DNA of 46,617 nt from a virus (taxonomy: Duplodnaviria; Heunggongvirae; Uroviricota; Caudoviricetes). Location of the stretch: IMG/VR virus record IMGVR_UViG_2541047681_000006; one strand, given 5' to 3'. Below, piece by piece: positions 1 through 7,286 of this stretch. The position numbers were made by a program, and so were the translations under genes. Numbering within the stretch: the stretch's first letter is position 1; each line of letters opens with the position of its first letter. A model generated the notes under the pieces. It did no database searches. It worked only from the letters and a program-made list of their open reading frames with translations, and had not been told where the DNA came from.

Positions 1-1143
1 CTATGCTGTTTTGATATCTACGATAATCCAGTCTTTACCACGATCATCATTGTATCGGTCGGTCATTTTTCTGGATTTATGACCTAACAACTTTTGCGTA
101 TCCAGACCCTGTTCCCGATATAACCGTTCTGACAGAGATCGCTGCTCATGAAATGTGGGCGCAGTTCCTGGCTCCCATTTTATGCCACATTTTTCCCTGG
201 CCTTTTTAAAAGCCGTTGTAAGAGTATTTGCAGACACCTGGTCTCCTCTGTTTGCTTGAGAGGTAGTGTGACGGTAATGGACCAGATATTTACTAACAAC
301 AGCATCCCTGCACTGAGATATAACTTCACGAAGGGTAATATTCAGAGCATCGCATTTCAGGTTAAGCGGAATAGCAAGTTTTGAACCGGTTTTTTCCTGA
401 GTAATGTGCAACATGTCGTCCCAGATATCAGAGAATTTCAAATTGCAGATATCGCCTAAACGTTGTCCAGTGACAAGAGCAAGTAGCATCCCGCATTTTA
501 AATAGGGCTGCCGTCTGCTTACGCTGTCAAATATTGCCTGCCATTCGGGCAGTGATAATCTTTGGCGGTTTACTCGATTTCGCGGTTGTTTTGTTGCCTG
601 CGCTGGGTTAAATCCTGGCGGAACATGTCCTGCGTGTTGTGCTTCTTTGAAGACGTCGATCAACACCATTCTCACGACTTGCGCCATCCTGTTATGACCT
701 TCAGCCTTTACAGCATCAATTATTTCGGCAATATCAAGTGCGGTAATATCCTTGAGGTGTTGCATTCCACAATGCTCACGGAAAAGACGAATGGGTTTGC
801 CTTTTTGCCGATAGGAGTTGGGTCTTAGTTCATTATGTTGCAGCCTGTCCTCCTGGATAGAAATATATTTATCAAGCCATTCTGTCACCGTAATGTCTGA
901 GCGCCTGCCTTTCATTCTTTCTAGACGCTCATTGACGCTTAATATTTGTCGGGTACGTTGTTCAGCAATAATGGTATTTGCTTCAGTAGCAACTTGTTTT
1001 GCTTCATTCTCATCAGTTCCTAAGCTATGAAAACGACCGGATAGTGGATGTTTGTATTGCCAATATACCTTTCCGGTTCGCTTATCTAATTTGCAATATA
1101 AATTGGGTATAGAGATTTTGTGAGATCGGGGTCTAGCAGCCAT
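1..1143 (-). CDS. int: phage tyrosine integrase (lambda Int family)
   Basis: 380-aa ORF with stop at 1-3; colinear with lambda Int including the C-terminal catalytic region (TFHEQRSLSERLY, LLGHKS, DRGKDW); start overlapped by an Xis-like ORF as in lambda. Confidence 0.9.
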   Translation of the reverse strand: MAARPRSHKISIPNLYCKLDKRTGKVYWQYKHPLSGRFHSLGTDENEAKQVATEANTIIAEQRTRQILSVNERLERMKGRRSDITVTEWLDKYISIQEDRLQHNELRPNSYRQKGKPIRLFREHCGMQHLKDITALDIAEIIDAVKAEGHNRMAQVVRMVLIDVFKEAQHAGHVPPGFNPAQATKQPRNRVNRQRLSLPEWQAIFDSVSRRQPYLKCGMLLALVTGQRLGDICNLKFSDIWDDMLHITQEKTGSKLAIPLNLKCDALNITLREVISQCRDAVVSKYLVHYRHTTSQANRGDQVSANTLTTAFKKAREKCGIKWEPGTAPTFHEQRSLSERLYREQGLDTQKLLGHKSRKMTDRYNDDRGKDWIIVDIKTA

Positions 1144-1369
1144 CAGCGATTATCCGTTGGAGTTTTGGGTTTGCGTTTATTGGGAGTTGCGGTTCTGCAA
1201 GCGTTCCTACAAAACGGGAATTTCGGTCAATCATCCAGTAGCGACCAACTTTTATAGCGGGTGGGGCCATCATTTTCCCTTGCGCGTATTTTTTCAGAAC
1301 TCGCTCACTTGGTGCTAAGTCCCCAAATTCTTCTTTAGCCCAGTCCTGTAAAGTGATTAGTCGAGACAT
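1133..1369 (-). CDS. xis: excisionase (Xis-like)
   Basis: 78-aa ORF overlapping the int start by 11 nt; LTLQDW and PPAIKVGRYW motifs parallel lambda Xis (LTLQEW, PPPVKDGREY). Confidence 0.7.
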   Translation of the reverse strand: MSRLITLQDWAKEEFGDLAPSERVLKKYAQGKMMAPPAIKVGRYWMIDRNSRFVGTLAEPQLPINANPKLQRIIADGC

Positions 1370-1508
1370 TTGTCCTCCTCTTAGCTGCTGAGGGAGTTTG
1401 TGACCGATATATCTGACATGATATTAAGCTCATGGCAGGTACATCTCTTGACTGGTCATAGAGATAAATTTAATGCTGAGAAATGCAGTATTGAATTTAT
1501 CAATTTTT

Positions 1509-1748
1509 CTATTTCCTGCGTATGGCACGTAACTTCTTAATGTGTTCTGCTGTTTCGATCTCTTCAGCTATCCGATCTGCGTCAGCTTTATTCACAGGTT
1601 CAAAGTCATGATTAAAGCGGAACATGCTGGCGATACATGTTCTGCCTTTTCGGATGTAGTGAACTTTGTTGTGAGTGGAACGCAGGATTTTGCAGGGAGT
1701 GCCGTGGTGGTCGACGTACCAGGTGTTAGGGTAAATCACTCTGAACAT
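1509..1748 (-). CDS. hypothetical protein
   Basis: 79-aa ORF in the early-left accessory region, same strand as neighbours; no family recognised. Confidence 0.4.
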   Translation of the reverse strand: MFRVIYPNTWYVDHHGTPCKILRSTHNKVHYIRKGRTCIASMFRFNHDFEPVNKADADRIAEEIETAEHIKKLRAIRRK

Positions 1749-1773
1749 TCTTGACCTTGTGTTGTGCGGATTG

Positions 1774-2142
1774 TTATTCAGTGCCGATATTTACCTTTAT
1801 CGCGTATACCTTTACCGGTTTATCACCGAAGTGCGGATGTGTGATTGTCTTCACTTCATATCCGTCATACGGAACATCAACTCTGCGGCTGGAATCGTCG
1901 CGCTTCGGATATCCCTTTGTGATAATCAGGCGGTCATGCTTACGGTTAACGAGGCGCTTTTTCCAGTAGTCATTACACAGGCGATACTCTTCCGTTTTCT
2001 CTCCGCGAATCATGGCATCGAAGTATTCACCTTTAACGGCAAGTTGCAGGTTAGCCACGGTTAACTCCTTGCTGTGTGGCGTCGAGTAATAAATCCCACA
2101 ACCGCTGAGAGCAATTTCCGCATGTACAGCGTTGACCCACAA
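1774..2142 (-). CDS. ASCH-domain-like protein (start uncertain)
   Basis: GEYFDAMIRGEKTEEYR resembles the ASCH N-terminal signature; annotated ORF start overlaps the upstream ORF by about 90 nt, so the true start is probably internal. Confidence 0.45.
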   Translation of the reverse strand: MWVNAVHAEIALSGCGIYYSTPHSKELTVANLQLAVKGEYFDAMIRGEKTEEYRLCNDYWKKRLVNRKHDRLIITKGYPKRDDSSRRVDVPYDGYEVKTITHPHFGDKPVKVYAIKVNIGTE

Positions 2143-2791
2143 CGTTTATCGCGTTGCTGATTTCCGGCGTTACCTGTTTAGGAACCATAACCCAACCATC
2201 CGGAGTTACCGGAAGCGAGAACGGCAGCACATCTCTGTGAACAAGTTTTTGCTGTGACAGGTTATCCAGAACTTTCTGTACTGCTGCATCACCGAATACA
2301 CCAAGCGCATCTGCCATAACTCCTACAACCTGATAAGCCTCAGCGCATACCGTGGATAAACCATCCGGAATTACCGGAGAGTTGCCGGGTTCTTTAATGT
2401 GCAAGCGAGGCTCACCATCTTTTGGCTCAGGCCACTGGCGCTCCATGTTGATCTTCAATTTATCTTCCATAGCAACGGTAATTTCAGCATCGCTGATGCC
2501 AGCACGGCGCTGTGCATCCCACAACAGAAACTGCATATCAGCCCACTCGCTAAGATCGTCTGGTTCGGCTGCGGCTTCCAGTGCCTCTTTTGAGAGGTGT
2601 TTCAGTGGACCAATGGGGCCAACGCAGCCAAATGTGGAGTCAGACCATTTGGCATGCTCGTGGCGAATCTGTTCGCGTTCCAGTGATGCCAGTGCAATTC
2701 GTGCTAGTTCCATTTGTTCGCCACGAGTAAGCCCGTTTTCAAGCGGATTTTTAATGAACAATTCAATACGTTCTTTGGTAATAGTGGTCAT
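2051..2791 (-). CDS. DUF550-type dATP/dGTP pyrophosphohydrolase-like protein
   Basis: 246-aa ORF; recalled similarity to the DUF550/MazG-like proteins common in E. coli lambdoid prophages; not verified by search. Confidence 0.5.
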   Translation of the reverse strand: MTTITKERIELFIKNPLENGLTRGEQMELARIALASLEREQIRHEHAKWSDSTFGCVGPIGPLKHLSKEALEAAAEPDDLSEWADMQFLLWDAQRRAGISDAEITVAMEDKLKINMERQWPEPKDGEPRLHIKEPGNSPVIPDGLSTVCAEAYQVVGVMADALGVFGDAAVQKVLDNLSQQKLVHRDVLPFSLPVTPDGWVMVPKQVTPEISNAINVVGQRCTCGNCSQRLWDLLLDATQQGVNRG

Positions 2792-3039
2792 GTGTTAATC
2801 CTCAAAACTTTATGCCCGGGCGCAAAAGTACGTGTTTTGTCTTTGCTTATTCGCCACCCGTCTTTACGGGCCTCTTTTGCACAACCAGACCATGACGTAC
2901 CGATATACTCACCGAAGTCTGGCACTGGATATACACCTTCCGTACACTGGCGACAATCACAATAGAGATGCATGGTGTAACTTGCGGCAATAGCCATATC
3001 ACTCTCTTTTTCCCTGAAGCATGGCAGCGTGGCAGGCAT
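2788..3039 (-). CDS. hypothetical Cys-rich protein
   Basis: 83-aa ORF, stop/start coupled to neighbours; several Cys residues (CDCRQC). Confidence 0.4.
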   Translation of the reverse strand: MPATLPCFREKESDMAIAASYTMHLYCDCRQCTEGVYPVPDFGEYIGTSWSGCAKEARKDGWRISKDKTRTFAPGHKVLRINT

Positions 3040-3607
3040 CCTCTACGCCCTTAACTGCATCTGCGCAGTAGTTATAGCGATTGCATTCCACTAACTTCTG
3101 CCTGAGATTTTCAATTGCTTGCGCGACATCAGCCTGTATTACAGGAACTGGCGGAACGGCTGTCTGCTGCTCTCGAACGTCATTAGTCGCTATCGGTTCT
3201 GCTGCCAACTGACTGGCATATTTGTTAATGGTAACGATAAGCTCTTGCTCAGCCTCATCCAGACAATCACCGATACCTCGCCTGTCGCCGTCAAAATCAT
3301 CGAAATCAGCACGAACTCTGGCAAATTTCAGGATTGCGGACAACACCTCACCAGGAATTACCGGAGAGTTGGTTGACGTTTCCGAAATTTCCCGAAAATT
3401 ATTGGTTGACGAATTCGCGTTTTCCCGAAAGTTTCCGGCATGAAGCATAGCCGCGCGGCAGGCGTTCCAGCCTCTCACCTCTGCAATAGCGGCAACAGCA
3501 TCGACCGCGTACATGCTAAGAGGGTTAGGCATTGGTTTTTCTTCAGGTACTACTGGCACTGGCTTGGCATATATAGCGGCTGAACATACCAACCCTTTGA
3601 TAACCAA
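2999..3607 (-). CDS. hypothetical protein with repeated PV(V/I)P linker motifs
   Basis: 202-aa ORF; contains KPVPVVPEE, NSPVIPGEV and PPVPVIQ motifs also seen in adjacent ORFs. Confidence 0.45.
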   Translation of the reverse strand: MVIKGLVCSAAIYAKPVPVVPEEKPMPNPLSMYAVDAVAAIAEVRGWNACRAAMLHAGNFRENANSSTNNFREISETSTNSPVIPGEVLSAILKFARVRADFDDFDGDRRGIGDCLDEAEQELIVTINKYASQLAAEPIATNDVREQQTAVPPVPVIQADVAQAIENLRQKLVECNRYNYCADAVKGVEDACHAAMLQGKRE

Positions 3608-3804
3608 CTGTCAGCAATGTTTTTACTCCTCGTTATTGCCGGAATACCTAAGCCATTGTCTGAATGCAGCCATGCCACCGGATTCTCTTCCAGCGATGCC
3701 AGAGCAATTTCATAAGCCCGGCGCTCAACATTGTCTCGCACATCCAAACTGCTGATACGCTCTTTGATTTCTTTAATCAGTTCTTTGTCGGTAAAAGTGC
3801 TCAT
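3550..3804 (-). CDS. hypothetical protein
   Basis: ORF trimmed to the ATG at 3804 (MSTFTDKELIKEIK), which abuts the stop of the upstream Ea22-like gene. Confidence 0.4.
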   Translation of the reverse strand: MSTFTDKELIKEIKERISSLDVRDNVERRAYEIALASLEENPVAWLHSDNGLGIPAITRSKNIADSWLSKGWYVQPLYMPSQCQ

Positions 3805-3805
3805 A

Positions 3806-4570
3806 TCAATCTCCATTGGTATCAATGTTTACAGCCTGACAAGACTCTTTGAGCACCCAGTCAATAGCGTCTTTCCATGCCTCTGTTTCGACTGGTGGAT
3901 TTTCACGCTTAACCTGTTCATAGAAGCGCACTGCTTTAACCAGTCCTTCCGGTACTACTGGTGATGGCTGTTTAGCTTCTAAATCAGCAATTCTGTCAAC
4001 CACGGCATCGACAGCATCTGAAAAGCCGAACCAGTTGCTCCACTCCGGCTCATCCCCGGTTGCTGCAAAGTACATATCTGCTAAAGCAGATTCAGCATGG
4101 TCACGCTCGTTAATGAGTTGCTCTTCGCTTTTCTCCAGTTCAGCAATACGCTTACCCCCATCCGAGATAACACCTTCGTAATACTCACGCTGCTCGTTGA
4201 GTTTTGATTTTGTCTCCTCAAGCTCAACTCTCAGCTTCCCAACAGTAAGAGCAATATCCTCGTTCTCCTGGTCGCGGCGTTTTATGTATTGCTGGTTTCT
4301 TTCCCGTTCATCCAGCAGTGCCAGCACAGTAGCCGGATTGGCTGCGGCGATGAATTCAGCATTGGCCTGCTGTTCCATTTGGAAATCTTCATCGAAACCG
4401 CTTTCTGGATGCGCTCCTTCAATTCTGCAAATGGGAATATATCCAGCAACTTCACGATGAATTAGCGCATAATCACCATCAAATCGGCTCTCTCCATATT
4501 CGAGCGACCACTCACCACACGTTGCTTTTTCTGCCGCTTCACGCAGTGCCTGATAGTTAATTTCGCTCAC
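3806..4570 (-). CDS. Ea22-like protein (coiled-coil)
   Basis: 254-aa ORF; acidic coiled-coil central region (ELEETKSKLNEQREYYEG, IAELEKSEEQLINERD) typical of the ead/Ea22-like family of lambdoid early-left regions. Confidence 0.55.
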   Translation of the reverse strand: MSEINYQALREAAEKATCGEWSLEYGESRFDGDYALIHREVAGYIPICRIEGAHPESGFDEDFQMEQQANAEFIAAANPATVLALLDERERNQQYIKRRDQENEDIALTVGKLRVELEETKSKLNEQREYYEGVISDGGKRIAELEKSEEQLINERDHAESALADMYFAATGDEPEWSNWFGFSDAVDAVVDRIADLEAKQPSPVVPEGLVKAVRFYEQVKRENPPVETEAWKDAIDWVLKESCQAVNIDTNGD

Positions 4571-4788
4571 TTCGAACCTCTCTGTTTACTGATAAGCTCC
4601 AGATCCTCCTGGCAACTTGCACAAGTCCGACAACCCTGAACGACCAGGCGTCTTCGTTCATCTATGGGATCGCCACACTCACAACAATGAGTGGCGGATA
4701 TAGTCTGGTAGTTCAGACGACGCATTTTTATTGCTGTATTGCGCTGTAATTCTTCAATTTCTGATGCTGAATCAATGATGTCCGCCAT
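4567..4788 (-). CDS. TraR/DksA-family C4 zinc-finger protein
   Basis: 73-aa ORF with CxxC...CxxC (CCECGDPIDERRRLVVQGCRTCASC), typical of phage TraR/DksA-like zinc fingers. Confidence 0.6.
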   Translation of the reverse strand: MADIIDSASEIEELQRNTAIKMRRLNYQTISATHCCECGDPIDERRRLVVQGCRTCASCQEDLELISKQRGSK

Positions 4789-4886
4789 CTTTCATTAATC
4801 CCTGAATTGTTGGTTAATACGCTTGAGGGTGAATGCGAATAATAAAAAAGGAGCCTGTAGCTCCCTGATGATTTTGCTTTTCATGT

Positions 4887-5168
4887 TCACCGTTCCTTAA
4901 AGACGCCGTTTAACATGCCGATCGCCAGGCTTAAATGAGTCGGTGTGAATCCCATCAGCGTTACCGTTTCGCGGTGCTTCTTTAGTACGCTACGGCAAAT
5001 GTCATCGACGTTTTTATCCGGAAACTGCTGTCTGGCTTTTTTGATTTCAGAATTAGCCTGACGGGCAATGCTGCGAAGGGCGTTTTCTTGCTGAGGTGTC
5101 ACTGAACAAGCCCCATGTCGGCAAGCATAAGCACACAGAATATGAAGCCCGCTGCCAGAAAAATGCAT
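4887..5168 (-). CDS. hypothetical protein
   Basis: 93-aa ORF between the zinc-finger gene and exo-proximal small ORFs; start uncertain. Confidence 0.3.
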   Translation of the reverse strand: MHFSGSGLHILCAYACRHGACSVTPQQENALRSIARQANSEIKKARQQFPDKNVDDICRSVLKKHRETVTLMGFTPTHLSLAIGMLNGVFKER

Positions 5169-5178
5169 TCAGTGGTTG

Positions 5179-5370
5179 TCATACCTGGTCTCTCTCATCT
5201 GCTTCTGCTTTCGCCACCATCATTTCCAGCTTTTGTGAAAGGGATGTGGCTAACGTATGAAATTCTTCGTCTGTTTCTACTGGTATTGGCACAAACCTGA
5301 CTCCAATTTGAGCAAGGCTATGTGCCATCTCAATACTCGTTCTTAACTCAACAGGAGATGCTTTGTGCAT
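5179..5370 (-). CDS. hypothetical small protein (lambda orf60a-region-like)
   Basis: 63-aa ORF in the position of the small lambda ORFs upstream of exo. Confidence 0.4.
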   Translation of the reverse strand: MHKASPVELRTSIEMAHSLAQIGVRFVPIPVETDEEFHTLATSLSQKLEMMVAKAEADERDQV

Positions 5371-5531
5371 ACCGCCTCCCGTTTATTATTTATCTTCTCA
5401 GCCAGCCGCTGTGCTTTCAGTGGATTTCTGATAACAGAAAGGCCGGGAAATACCCAGCCTCGCTTTGTAACGGAGTAGACGAAAGTGATCGCGCCTACCC
5501 GGATATTATCGTGAGGATGCGTCATCGCCAT
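5343..5531 (-). CDS. hypothetical small protein
   Basis: 62-aa ORF immediately downstream of exo on the same strand. Confidence 0.4.
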
Positions 5532-6202
5532 TGCTCCCCAAATACAAAACTAATTTCAGCCAGTGCCTCGTCCATTTTTTCGATGAACTCCGGCACCATC
5601 TCGTCAAAACTCGCCATGTACTTTTCATCCCGCTCAACCACGACATAATGCAGTCCTTCACGCTTCATACGCGGGTCATAGTTGGCAAAGTACCAGGCAT
5701 CTTTTCGCGTCACCCACATGCTGTACTGCACCTGGGCCATGTAAGCCGATTTTATGGCCTCGAAACCACCGAGCCGGAACTTCATGAAATCCCGGGAGGT
5801 AAACGGGCATTTCAGCTCAAGGCCGTTGCCGTCACTGCATAAACCATCGGGAGAGCAGGCGGTGCGCATACTTTCGTCGCGATAGATGATCGGGGATTCA
5901 GTAACATTCACGCCGGAAGTAAACTCAAACAGGGCTCTGGCGTCGTTCTCGTACTGTTTTCCCCAAGCCAGCGCCTTAGCGTTAACTTCCGGAGCCACAC
6001 CGGTGCAAACCTCAGCAAGCAGGGTGTGGAAGTAGGACATTTTCATGTCAGGCCATTTCTTTCCGGAGCGGGGTTTTGCTATCACGTTGTGAACTTCTGA
6101 AGCGGTGATGACGCCGAGCCGTAATTTGTGCCATGCATCATCCCCCTGTTCGACAGCTCTCACGTCGATCCCGGTACGCTGCAGGATAATGTCCGGTGTC
6201 AT
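5522..6202 (-). CDS. exo: lambda exonuclease (Red alpha)
   Basis: 226-aa ORF near-identical to remembered lambda Exo ([40 protein letters not shown]...). Confidence 0.95.
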
Positions 6203-6984
6203 GCTGCCACCTTCTGCTCAGTGGCTTTCTGTTTCAGGAATCCAAGAGCTTTCACTGCTTCGGCCTGTGTCAGTTCTGACGATGCGCGAATGTCGCGGCG
6301 AAATATCTGGGAACAGAGCGGCAATAAGTCGTCATCCCATGTTTTATCCAGGGCGATCAGCAGAGTGTTAATCTCCTGCATGGTTTCATCGTTAACCGGA
6401 GTGATGTCGCGTTCCGGCTGACGTTCTGCAGTGTATGCGGTATTTTCGACAATGCGCTCGGCTTCATCCTTGTCATAGATACCAGCAAATCCGAAGGCGA
6501 GACGGGCACACTGAATCATGGCTTTATGCCGTAACATCCGTTTGGGATGCGACTGCCACGGCCCCGTGATTTCTCTGCCTTCGCGGGTTTTGAATGGTTC
6601 GCGGCGGCATTCATCCATCCACTCGGTAACGCAGATCGGATGATTGCGGTCTTTGCGGTAAATCCGGCATGTACATGATTCATTGTCCTGCTCAAAGTCC
6701 ATACCATCAAACTGCTGGTTTTCATTGATGATGCGGGACCAGCCATCAACGCCCACCACCGGAACAATGCCGTTCTGCTTATCAGGGAAGGCGTAAATTT
6801 CTTTCGTCCACGGATTAAGGCCGTACTGGTTGGCGACGATCAACAATGCGATGAACTGCGCATCGCTGGCATCACCTTTAAATGCCGTCTGGCGAAGAGT
6901 GGTGATCAGTTCCTGTGGGTCGACAGAATCCATGCCGACACGTTCAGCCAGCTTCCCTGCCAGCGTTGCGAGTGCTGTACTCAT
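6199..6984 (-). CDS. bet: Red beta single-strand annealing protein
   Basis: 261-aa ORF matching lambda Bet; 4-nt overlap with exo. Confidence 0.95.
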
Positions 6985-6989
6985 CCGTT

Positions 6990-7286
6990 TTATACCTCTG
7001 AATCAATATCAGCCTGATGGTGAGCAATGGTTTCAACTATGTACCGGATGTGTTCTGCCATGCGCTCCTGAAACTCAACATCGTCATCAAACGCACGGGT
7101 AATGGCTTTTTTGCTGGCCCCGTGGCGTTGTAAATGATCGATGCATAGCGATTCAAACAGGTGCTGGGGCAGGCCTTTTTCCATGTCGTCTGCCAGTTCT
7201 GCCTCTTTCTCTTCACGGGCGATCTGCTGGTAGTGACGCGCCCAGCTCTGAGCCTCAAGACGATCCTGAATGTAATAAGCGTTCAT
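6990..7286 (-). CDS. gam: Gam, RecBCD inhibitor
   Basis: 98-aa ORF matching the short form of lambda Gam ([21 protein letters not shown]...DIDSEV). Confidence 0.9.

Follow-up and report, generated by a model that had tools for sequence, protein, structure and literature searches.

A conserved in-frame coding linker at module boundaries of early-left proteins in temperate Enterobacterales phages, and its possible role as a homology patch for module exchange

We analysed a stretch of 46,617 nucleotides (nt) from a virus of the Caudoviricetes (IMG/VR record IMGVR_UViG_2541047681_000006), here called the window, and within it a short repeated coding sequence in the open reading frames (ORFs) of the early-left arm. 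A first-pass annotation, made from the letters alone, had noticed an 18-base-pair (bp) repeat and a recurring Pro/Val peptide motif in these ORFs, and had proposed that the motif is a linker used as a recombination joint for domain shuffling. We find that the 18-mer is the core of a 27-30 nt linker, termed the class-1 linker, with the consensus GGC AAC TCT CCG GTA AYT CCG GAT GGT TGG, which reads G-N-S-P-V-T/I-P-D-G-W. It occurs in several copies at the edges of domains, homology between related phages breaks off at it, the sequences on either side are massively reassorted, and its copies are near-identical at the DNA level. We consider it reasonably probable, judging from sequence comparisons, that the linker acts as an in-frame homology patch which lets homologous recombination swap modules in EaA/Ea22/DUF550/DUF551 proteins.

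The 18-mer GGAATTACCGGAGAGTTG is found exactly at 2367-2384 and 3354-3371 and at no other site of the window even with up to two mismatches; none of 100 dinucleotide shuffles reached two matches. As had been reported, both copies lie in the minus-strand coding frame of two different ORFs. The annotation read NSPVIPG in both, of which N-S-P-V-I-P is indeed common, while the residues that follow differ (D-G-L in ORF1, G-E-V in ORF2). The 11-mer GGTACTACTGG also proved exact at 3546-3556 and 3951-3961 (expected number 0), and the related peptides KPVPVVPEE, PPVPVIQ and SPVVPEGL are where they had been placed. Moreover, there is a third class-1 copy at 2192-2218, which was not part of the earlier description and is more consensus-like than the other two; the repeat search placed it at 2197-2219, encoding L-P-V-T-P-D-G-W.

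Homology between the window and related phages ends at these motifs. Megablast searches with ORF1 and ORF2 against 50,697 phage records gave alignment ends at ORF1 query positions 309 and 142 (window 2359 and 2192) and at ORF2 query positions 373 and 356, which are window positions 3371 and 3354, the exact ends of the 18-mer. Other ORF2 alignments end at query 141-162 (3139-3160, PPVPVIQ) and 558-564 (3556-3562, PVPVVPEE). In addition, 319 IMG/VR loci were fetched with four proteins and compared by local blastn (loci are given L numbers below), and the alignment ends were merged into distinct junctions by the sequence past each end. Twenty-six of the 124 distinct intragenic junctions lie at most 8 nt from five motif sites that make up 8.9% of the eligible positions (binomial p = 3e-5); when the Ea22 coiled coil is omitted, the count is 26 of 75 (p = 3e-7). 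The PVPVVPEE site, which has 17 further junctions, was left out of this test because it adjoins a frameshift stop. Left as well as right homology ends occur at each of six motif sites. At copy 1, relatives that share the coding-upstream side diverge at 2355-2361 and those that share the coding-downstream side at 2379 or 2386, and copy 3 has ends at 2192, with 19 flank signatures, and at 2213. Triads of sequences show the same thing: in L138 and L149 identity to the window extends over DUF550 and the linker and then gives way to unrelated sequence, and L064 and L168 are unrelated ahead of the linker and identical from the linker on. This pattern is seen, in both directions, at 2192-2218 and at 3350-3373 as well. 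Breakpoints thus coincide with the motif in megablast, local blastn and triad comparisons.

A search of the 319 loci with the 18-mer, allowing up to three mismatches, yielded 330 matches, all of which encode the peptide G-N-[SY]-P-V-[TI]-P-D-G-W between two unrelated sequences. Clustering of these flanks gave at least 14 upstream and at least 9 downstream families in 44 combinations, including 73 complete 2x2 squares, in which all four pairings of two upstream and two downstream families are present. Examples of the upstream families are the DUF550 tail ERQWPEPKDGEPRLHIKEPG, ...RIEAVKAVLRRLAG, ...AMLHGAEPVSQTYKLNELSG and ...CSHNQHHDDTLYVRADLVNG; the downstream families include DUF551 variants starting WISCSERMP, WVMVPKRLTAENG, WVMVPKELTPEMM, LSTVCAEAYQ, EVLSAILKFARVRADFDDF and SSVPAPGKG. 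Since it is common to so many unrelated families on both sides, the linker is not part of any one domain. Nucleotide conservation is 0.9-1.0 across about 30 nt and 0.3-0.5, the background level, on either side. The conserved span exceeds the searched 18-mer, extending to GGC before it and to G GAT GGT TGG after it. The linker therefore shows two of the properties by which a boundary sequence is recognised: it is a short conserved nucleotide segment between unrelated flanks, and mosaic junctions coincide with it while the flanks are reassorted.

The motif also appears to lie outside the folded core, and both outcomes that would have counted against the first-pass proposal, scattered breakpoints and a place in the core, thus turned out in its favour. 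The Pfam domain PF04447 ends at residue 137 of ORF1, where the linker begins, and in the relatives P0025 and P0037 PF04448 (DUF551) starts at residue 199, which is the G-W of the linker; the window has VMVPKQ... after that linker. All motif sites are non-helical (coil) in AlphaFold models of ORF1 and of P0122, an intact homologue of the split gene described below; these models are of low confidence (mean predicted local distance difference test, pLDDT, 40 and 48). AlphaFold2 was run with alignments of about 50 sequences, and we took from it no more than the pattern of secondary structure, as weak evidence. A sequence search of the PDB gave no relative for P0025, the Ea22-like ORF or P0122. Copies 1 and 3 bracket a module of about 50 amino acids (aa), and in L130, L132 and L148 DUF550-NSPV(I/T)PDG runs straight into W-VMVPK... 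without it. Because it is absent exactly between the two linker copies, the module behaves as a cassette. In L064 and L168 it stands behind another upstream module.

We then looked at the linker codon by codon, locating the motif on six-frame translations to avoid nucleotide ascertainment. Counted over 120 unique contexts, the codons are AAC (115/120), TCT (87/87), CCG (119/120), GTA (116/117), ACT (81/81) or ATT (39/39), CCG (93) or CCT (26), GAT (96/96) and GGT (84/86). The mean minor-codon fraction of the linker is 0.015, compared to 0.21 for the motif IALASLE and 0.13 for GWNACRAAML in the same loci, a value as small as in the single-family modules of lowest diversity. We searched one genome from each of 185,579 species with a fully codon-degenerate pattern, AAYTMNCCNGTNAYNCCNGAYGGNTGG, which gave 37 matches, nearly all in Enterobacterales, from Proteus, Hafnia, Brenneria, Erwinia, Kluyvera, Enterobacter, Citrobacter, Shimwellia, Mangrovibacter, Trabulsiella, Scandinavium and other genera. 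These matches use the same codons, with appreciable variation only between GTA and GTG and between ACT and ATT, and their neighbouring modules are strongly divergent in protein. At identical residues codon identity is 0.85 in the linker (all pairs) versus 0.69-0.73 in homologous flanks (only 15 pairs), a difference in synonymous identity across genera that is suggestive. Finally, exchange points seem to lie within the linker: variable sites on its upstream side are linked to the upstream module and those further on to the downstream module, and linkage is lowest at the S/Y site.

The linker is widespread. Its 30-mer is found in 535 phage records, which comprise lambdoid, P22-like, P1-like and Stx-converting phages as well as phages of Klebsiella, Serratia and Proteus. 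Of 5426 complete E. coli genomes, 1277 contain it, in up to 6 places per genome and with 68 places on plasmids. The same modules with the linker are present in the P1-like plasmid prophages P7 (upf89.5, AF503408.1 89857-90318), SJ46, D6 and P1. Given these prophages and the plasmid copies, the module pool is common beyond lambdoid and P22-like phages.

A few matches have other origins. In Shimwellia pseudoproteus DSM 3038 (NZ_WBXP01000006.1; L336 5399-5430) the match is a spacer, AACTCTCCGGTAATTCCGGATGGTTGGATACC, of a clustered regularly interspaced short palindromic repeats (CRISPR) array at about 4831-6434, with 27 copies of the 28-nt repeat TTTCTAAGCTGCCTGTACGGCAGTGAAC, a 60-nt period and 32-nt spacers. 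The spacer consists of exactly the linker plus five bases, and the repeat belongs to what we take to be a type I-F-like system. This host has thus gained immunity against the conserved linker itself, so that conservation is also a liability for the phages. In Proteus prophages (L320 1217-1243, L331, L348, and L359 1233-1255, which is phage Pm34) the spacer between the Q and holin genes contains a fragment of about 48 nt that is similar to ...LVNG-NSPVTPDGW-ISCS. No real ORF goes with this fragment, its TGG is TGA in Pm34, and it looks like a solo linker relic. We had considered whether such solo linkers, flanked by stops in Proteus and Shimwellia, have a non-coding function; this was rejected, the one being a CRISPR spacer and the other a gene fragment of about 48 nt. 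In L323 and L324, from a Segatella copri metagenome-assembled genome, and in L326, from Chryseobacterium sp. 18061, the linker is embedded in prophage sequence of the E. coli or Scandinavium type. Over the 147 nt (49 codons) compared, L326 does not differ from the Scandinavium locus L341, and the linker in these Segatella and Chryseobacterium assemblies is probably due to contamination or mis-binning.

How could such a pattern arise? According to the homology-patch reading, the linker would separate independently exchangeable modules of early-left multi-module proteins in temperate Enterobacterales phages. As it is near letter-identical in unrelated genes and its frame is fixed, a crossover between any two copies yields an in-frame chimera. 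Partners may be co-infecting phages, a phage and a resident prophage, or neighbouring genes. An allelic crossover at the linker would exchange everything downstream of it; a single such event between collinear phages would give a viable genome with an in-frame chimera. An ectopic crossover between copies in one genome would lead to gain or loss of cassettes. The prevalence of the linker in phages and E. coli genomes gives opportunity for exchange. Three observations fit a crossover within a shared homology patch, namely that identity from the two sides overlaps on the linker, that the joints of all combinations are uniform in length and sequence, and that linkage shifts across the linker. We infer that linker homology causes the exchanges, and that the likeliest catalyst is phage single-strand annealing by Redβ/Exo, which are encoded 2-4 kb away in the same operon; host RecA would be the alternative. 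Redβ is reported to need a pairing segment of at least 23-27 bp and RecA one of at least 31-34 bp (PMC3945230), and the fully conserved linker block of 27-30 nt is close to that quoted for Redβ. Moreover, mosaics are known to form through Rad52-like phage recombinases where homology is short or diverged (PMC3945230). No Chi site is present in the first 9 kb of the window.

Several points weigh against this reading. Coincidence of junctions and reassortment are also expected if random junctions survive only in a tolerant linker. The flexibility of the linker rests on Pfam boundaries and low-confidence AlphaFold models, and the junction counts do not represent phylogenetically independent events. 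There are hot spots away from the Pro/Val motifs, at 2671-2680, 3439-3451 and 3466-3473, and many more in the Ea22 coiled coil. The codons of a second linker class, described below, vary (CCG/CCA/CCT, GTA/GTG), so DNA identity is not required at every joint. Finally, the window's own pair of 18-mers may be nearly inert, because 18 bp of perfect identity (21/23 overall) is less than the minimum reported for Redβ.

The first of these points is the core of a Hendrix-type model, in which illegitimate recombination creates junctions anywhere, selection retains only those in a flexible neutral spacer, and the shared nucleotides are inherited from one parent. The joints do lie between domains, where selection would tolerate them, some hot spots lack a strongly conserved nucleotide motif, and the second linker class has variable codons. 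Such a process, however, predicts junctions of heterogeneous sequence and length, whereas all 44 combinations keep the same linker length and nearly the same nucleotides despite unrelated flanks, and the identity of upstream-sharing and downstream-sharing relatives overlaps precisely on the linker. The finding of De Paepe et al. that illegitimate exchange is far rarer than recombinase-dependent exchange (PMC3945230) also counts against it, and we judge it unlikely. Somewhat less credible to us is a role at the protein level, be it as domain cap, binding or cleavage motif or rigid Pro-rich spacer, with DNA identity as a by-product of recent ancestry in a young gene pool. It would account for the conserved peptide and for the W, which is the first residue of DUF551 and of W-[VL]-x-V-P modules, and low synonymous diversity is also seen in single-family E. 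coli/Salmonella modules (0.017 in module B, 0.032 in the DUF550 tail). But the linker is common to five unrelated downstream and at least 14 upstream families, its codons are unchanged across genera whose flanking modules have strongly diverged in protein, and other conserved peptide motifs in the same loci show synonymous polymorphism. A protein-level role and the homology-patch reading are not mutually exclusive. Chance repeats without biological meaning, for which only the short repeat lengths (18 and 11 bp) would speak, are refuted: no shuffle reached two matches for either repeat, and 330 occurrences of the sequence were counted in related loci, all at boundaries of modules.

The linker could also be an active nucleic-acid element, since the consensus is an imperfect palindrome, CAACT-C-TCCGG-TAACT-CCGGA-T-GGTTG. 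Its hairpin might promote exchange by template switching or through a structure-specific nuclease, or might act on the transcript by a translational pause or processing. For the consensus 30-mer the folding energy is -14.1 kcal/mol (z-score versus shuffles -2.3), a stability reached by only 0.6% of synonymous recodings, and the variable sites (second base of S/Y, third base of V, second base of T/I) are all unpaired. Yet the palindrome was noticed post hoc and the three copies in the window are not unusually stable (fractions of 0.07, 0.34 and 0.20 of synonymous recodings). The unpaired third positions of ACT/ATT and GAT are conserved as well as paired ones, GGC/GGG variants break the outer stem, and no base pair has two free positions, one partner always being fixed by the amino acid. 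We regard this as improbable. Rfam gave no match with E <= 1 in 1500-5200, and the promoter/terminator scan was at chance level, with a count of terminator-like sites not far above shuffles. The inner stem of the linker hairpin (TCCGGTAATTCCGGA then TGGTTTATCC; 2364-2378, minus strand) was flagged as a weak terminator-like site. A bolder version, which we also think unlikely, is that the linker is no passive spacer but a maintained recombination signal, an imperfect palindrome of about 27 nt whose synonymous sites are held constant throughout Enterobacterales phages. It might be maintained by recombinational drive, by which only modules with the canonical sequence spread to new contexts, or by an active hairpin-dependent step such as template switching or structure-specific nuclease cleavage. 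If true, the domains of early accessory proteins would be shuffled in these phages by a dedicated system that preserves the frame, the viral counterpart of phase-compatible exon shuffling.

Site-specific systems such as a shufflon, in contrast, were rejected. Neither inverted repeats nor a dedicated recombinase, the hallmarks of shufflon/Rci-type inversion, were found in the window; all repeats are direct and co-oriented, and the only nearby site-specific recombinase is the prophage integrase. Phages whose integrases differ share the linker, as do P1-like plasmid prophages. Local blastn of the loci revealed no inverted linker variants.

The Pro/Val motifs noticed first are the most conspicuous of several joint motifs, which also include IALASLE and GWNACRAAML, and the proteins of ORF1, the split gene and the Ea22-like gene are strings of small modules. 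The PVVPE motif of the 11-mer and IALASLE are weaker, less strictly conserved joints of the same kind as the class-1 linker. Within the window, joint motifs are confined to the genes between 2051 and 4570. The 11-mer lies in the class-2 Pro/Val linker, which has the approximate pattern [LV]-Y-A-[AT]-P-P-[VA]-P-V-V-P-E-E with reassorted contexts; the middle part of Ea22, ...DRIADLEAKQPS, is followed by EGLVKAV..., EEKPMPNPL... or DNASGSL..., depending on the phage. At the PPVPVIQ site tblastn matches begin at residue 152 or end at residue 156. The two IALASLE copies of the window are identical at 19 of 21 nt, and in the loci set this motif joins 10 upstream and 22 downstream contexts in 49 combinations. 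The GWNACRAAML/ACHAAML motif contributes extra hot spots at 3439-3473.

Some details of the split gene concern the same motifs. Two of its helical modules end in C-R-A-A-M-L (3443-3460) and C-H-A-A-M-L (3017-3034), with a Pro/Val linker ahead of each, and in relatives AAMLQG is followed by xEPVSQxYKLNxLSG and then by the class-1 linker. Directly upstream of linker copy 2, at 3369-3433, there is a 33-bp tandem duplication, 78% identical, which encodes NFRENANSSTN / NFREISETSTN and whose 5' end (TTGGTTGAC) overlaps the end of the 18-mer. Tandem Repeats Finder returned nothing for 1700-4900; the duplication was seen only in a separate repeat search.

The region in question is the early-left arm (int–xis–ea–exo/bet), in which all genes are on the minus strand (Table 1). 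It is near-identical to phage ev017 and to Escherichia phage PhiR57_1 (PV340572.1), which resides as a prophage in E. coli ECOR13. The Ea22-like/DUF550 nature of the proteins, proposed earlier, was borne out by Pfam, with 141.8 bits for PF04447 in ORF1 (gathering score 23) and 138.1 bits for PF13935 in the ORF at 3806-4570 (gathering score 27). The ORF at 2999-3607, however, is part of a split gene and not an independent gene. Neither it nor the ORF at 3550-3825 has a Pfam match, although the GenBank record labels both EaA/Ea22, and DUF551 (PF04448) matched none of the window ORFs. The split is due to a frameshift in a TA run, where L244 and L172 have one extra base in the alignment and read ...GWYVQPLYIAKPVPVVPEE... 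in a single frame; intact homologues are P0122 and P0123 (263 aa). The two halves are annotated as separate ORFs in PV340572.1 and NC_049948.1. Since ev017 and several identical IMG/VR contigs have this lesion too, it is an allele common to them rather than an error made in sequencing one record.

Table 1. Coordinates of genes, domains, linkers and other joint motifs in the early-left arm of the window.
Feature	Position	Strand	Remarks
int	1-1143	(-)	
xis	1133-1369	(-)	
ASCH-domain gene	1774-2058	(-)	
ORF1 (DUF550 protein)	2051-2791	(-)	
Class-1 linker copy 3	2192..2218	(-)	S-L-P-V-T-P-D-G-W; 23/24 nt of consensus on 3' side
Optional ~50-aa module (LSTVCAEAYQVV...)	2213..2359	(-)	bracketed by linker copies 1 and 3, 165 nt apart
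Class-1 linker copy 1	2360..2386	(-)	G136-N-S-P-V-I-P-D-G144 of DUF550 protein; holds 18-mer 2367-2384
DUF550 / dATP-dGTP pyrophosphohydrolase domain	2381..2668	(-)	aa 42-137 of ORF1; PF04447, E = 8e-42, profile positions 1-96 of 97
I-A-L-A-S-L-E motif, end of ORF1 N-terminal leader module	2678..2698	(-)	hot spot 2671-2680, 13 distinct junctions
Small Cys-rich ORF	2788-2997/3039	(-)	
ORF2	2999-3607 (/3514)	(-)	3' part of split gene
P-P-V-P-V-I-Q linker	3134..3154	(-)	before C-terminal helical module (ADVAQAIENL...ACHAAMLQG); junction ends 3130-3160
Class-1 linker copy 2	3350..3373	(-)	T-N-S-P-V-I-P-G, variant CCT GGT GAG; holds 18-mer 3354-3371; junction ends 3354, 3364, 3371
Class-2 linker A-K-P-V-P-V-V-P-E-E	3539..3568	(-)	holds 11-mer 3546-3556; 17 distinct junctions in 3537-3569; contexts reassorted
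ORF91	3550-3804	(-)	5' part of split gene
TA run with 1-nt loss	3569-3575	(-)	frameshift splits one EaA-like gene (3804 to 2999) into ORF 3550-3804 and ORF 2999-3607/3514
I-A-L-A-S-L-E motif, ORF 3550-3804 (split gene)	3688..3708	(-)	hot spot 3687-3688, 6 junctions
Ead/Ea22-like gene	3806-4570	(-)	Pfam domain aa 2-146 (4133-4567), PF13935, E = 4e-40
Class-2 linker Q-P-S-P-V-V-P-E-G, Ea22-like protein	3944..3969	(-)	holds 11-mer 3951-3961; junctions at 3946-3969
TraR-like gene	4567-4788	(-)	
orf61/63/60a, exo, bet, gam, kil, cIII	past TraR-like gene	(-)	exo, bet, gam at 5522-7286

Each of these proteins matches PHROG families over part of its length, 14 in the case of ORF1, 8 for the intact homologue of the split gene and 21 for the Ea22-like protein, and all three match the chimeric phrog_60. 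Protein families based on clustering are confounded by module shuffling. Shuffling thus explains why EaA/Ea22/DUF550/DUF551 proteins, with 8-21 PHROG families each, defeat family-based annotation, and the joint motifs provide a rule for cutting these proteins into modules before structure or function is predicted. Beyond annotation, it has been argued for 40 years whether phage mosaics result from exchange at short conserved sequences or from random junctions filtered by selection. The locus is a compact and abundant test case for this question, with an intragenic fixed-frame joint of about 30 nt, dozens of combinations and a presence in about a quarter of complete E. coli genomes.

How does the linker relate to known systems? 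Conserved boundary or linker sequences are reportedly part of the modular theory of lambdoid phages (Botstein in 1980, Susskind and Botstein) and are said to have been found as boundary sequences in HK620 by Clark and colleagues in 2001. Like these, the class-1 linker is a short nucleotide-conserved segment at module boundaries, between unrelated segments, of the kind proposed as sites of homologous exchange. Unlike them, it does not lie between genes but inside ORFs, is translated in a fixed frame, and is reused several times within one protein and in neighbouring genes, so that domains of proteins, and not genes, are shuffled. PeSLs, reportedly described in a 2010 study, are said to be short conserved repeats with stem-loop potential among hyperplastic accessory genes and have been proposed to mediate recombination. 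They are intergenic regulatory elements, whereas the class-1 linker is coding and in frame.

In T-even phages, host-range segments of the tail-fibre adhesins gp37/gp38 are exchanged by recombination between conserved motifs, among them glycine-rich ones (Tétart et al. 1998, cited in PMC3157838). The glycine-rich motifs of gp38, however, form the structural core of one domain and have a fixed order, whereas the linker separates unrelated domains of accessory early proteins as a spacer, and these proteins differ in how many modules they have and in which order. Closest in gene family and genome region are the Ea22 proteins of lambda and Stx phages, which have a common N-terminal coiled-coil part and unrelated C-terminal domains, including DUF551, which is called a portable domain (PMC10834534). 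That paper gives mosaic blocks at the protein level only, and the words 'linker' and 'recombination' are absent from its text. In the searchable full-text literature we found no description of the peptide strings or of a nucleotide-level joint; matches to the peptide strings were unrelated, and searches on DUF551 and EaA turned up no account of the joint. The debate on homologous versus illegitimate origins of mosaics is summarised in PMC3945230, according to which Redβ, RecT and Erf recombine short or diverged homologies and intragenic segments of about 100 bp are often exchanged. Such relaxed recombination is a general mechanism, acting there on homologies of 650-3350 bp, with no dedicated reusable short joint. 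While the concept is old, what is new here is a specific frame-preserving intragenic joint that is near-invariant at synonymous sites and reused on a large scale.

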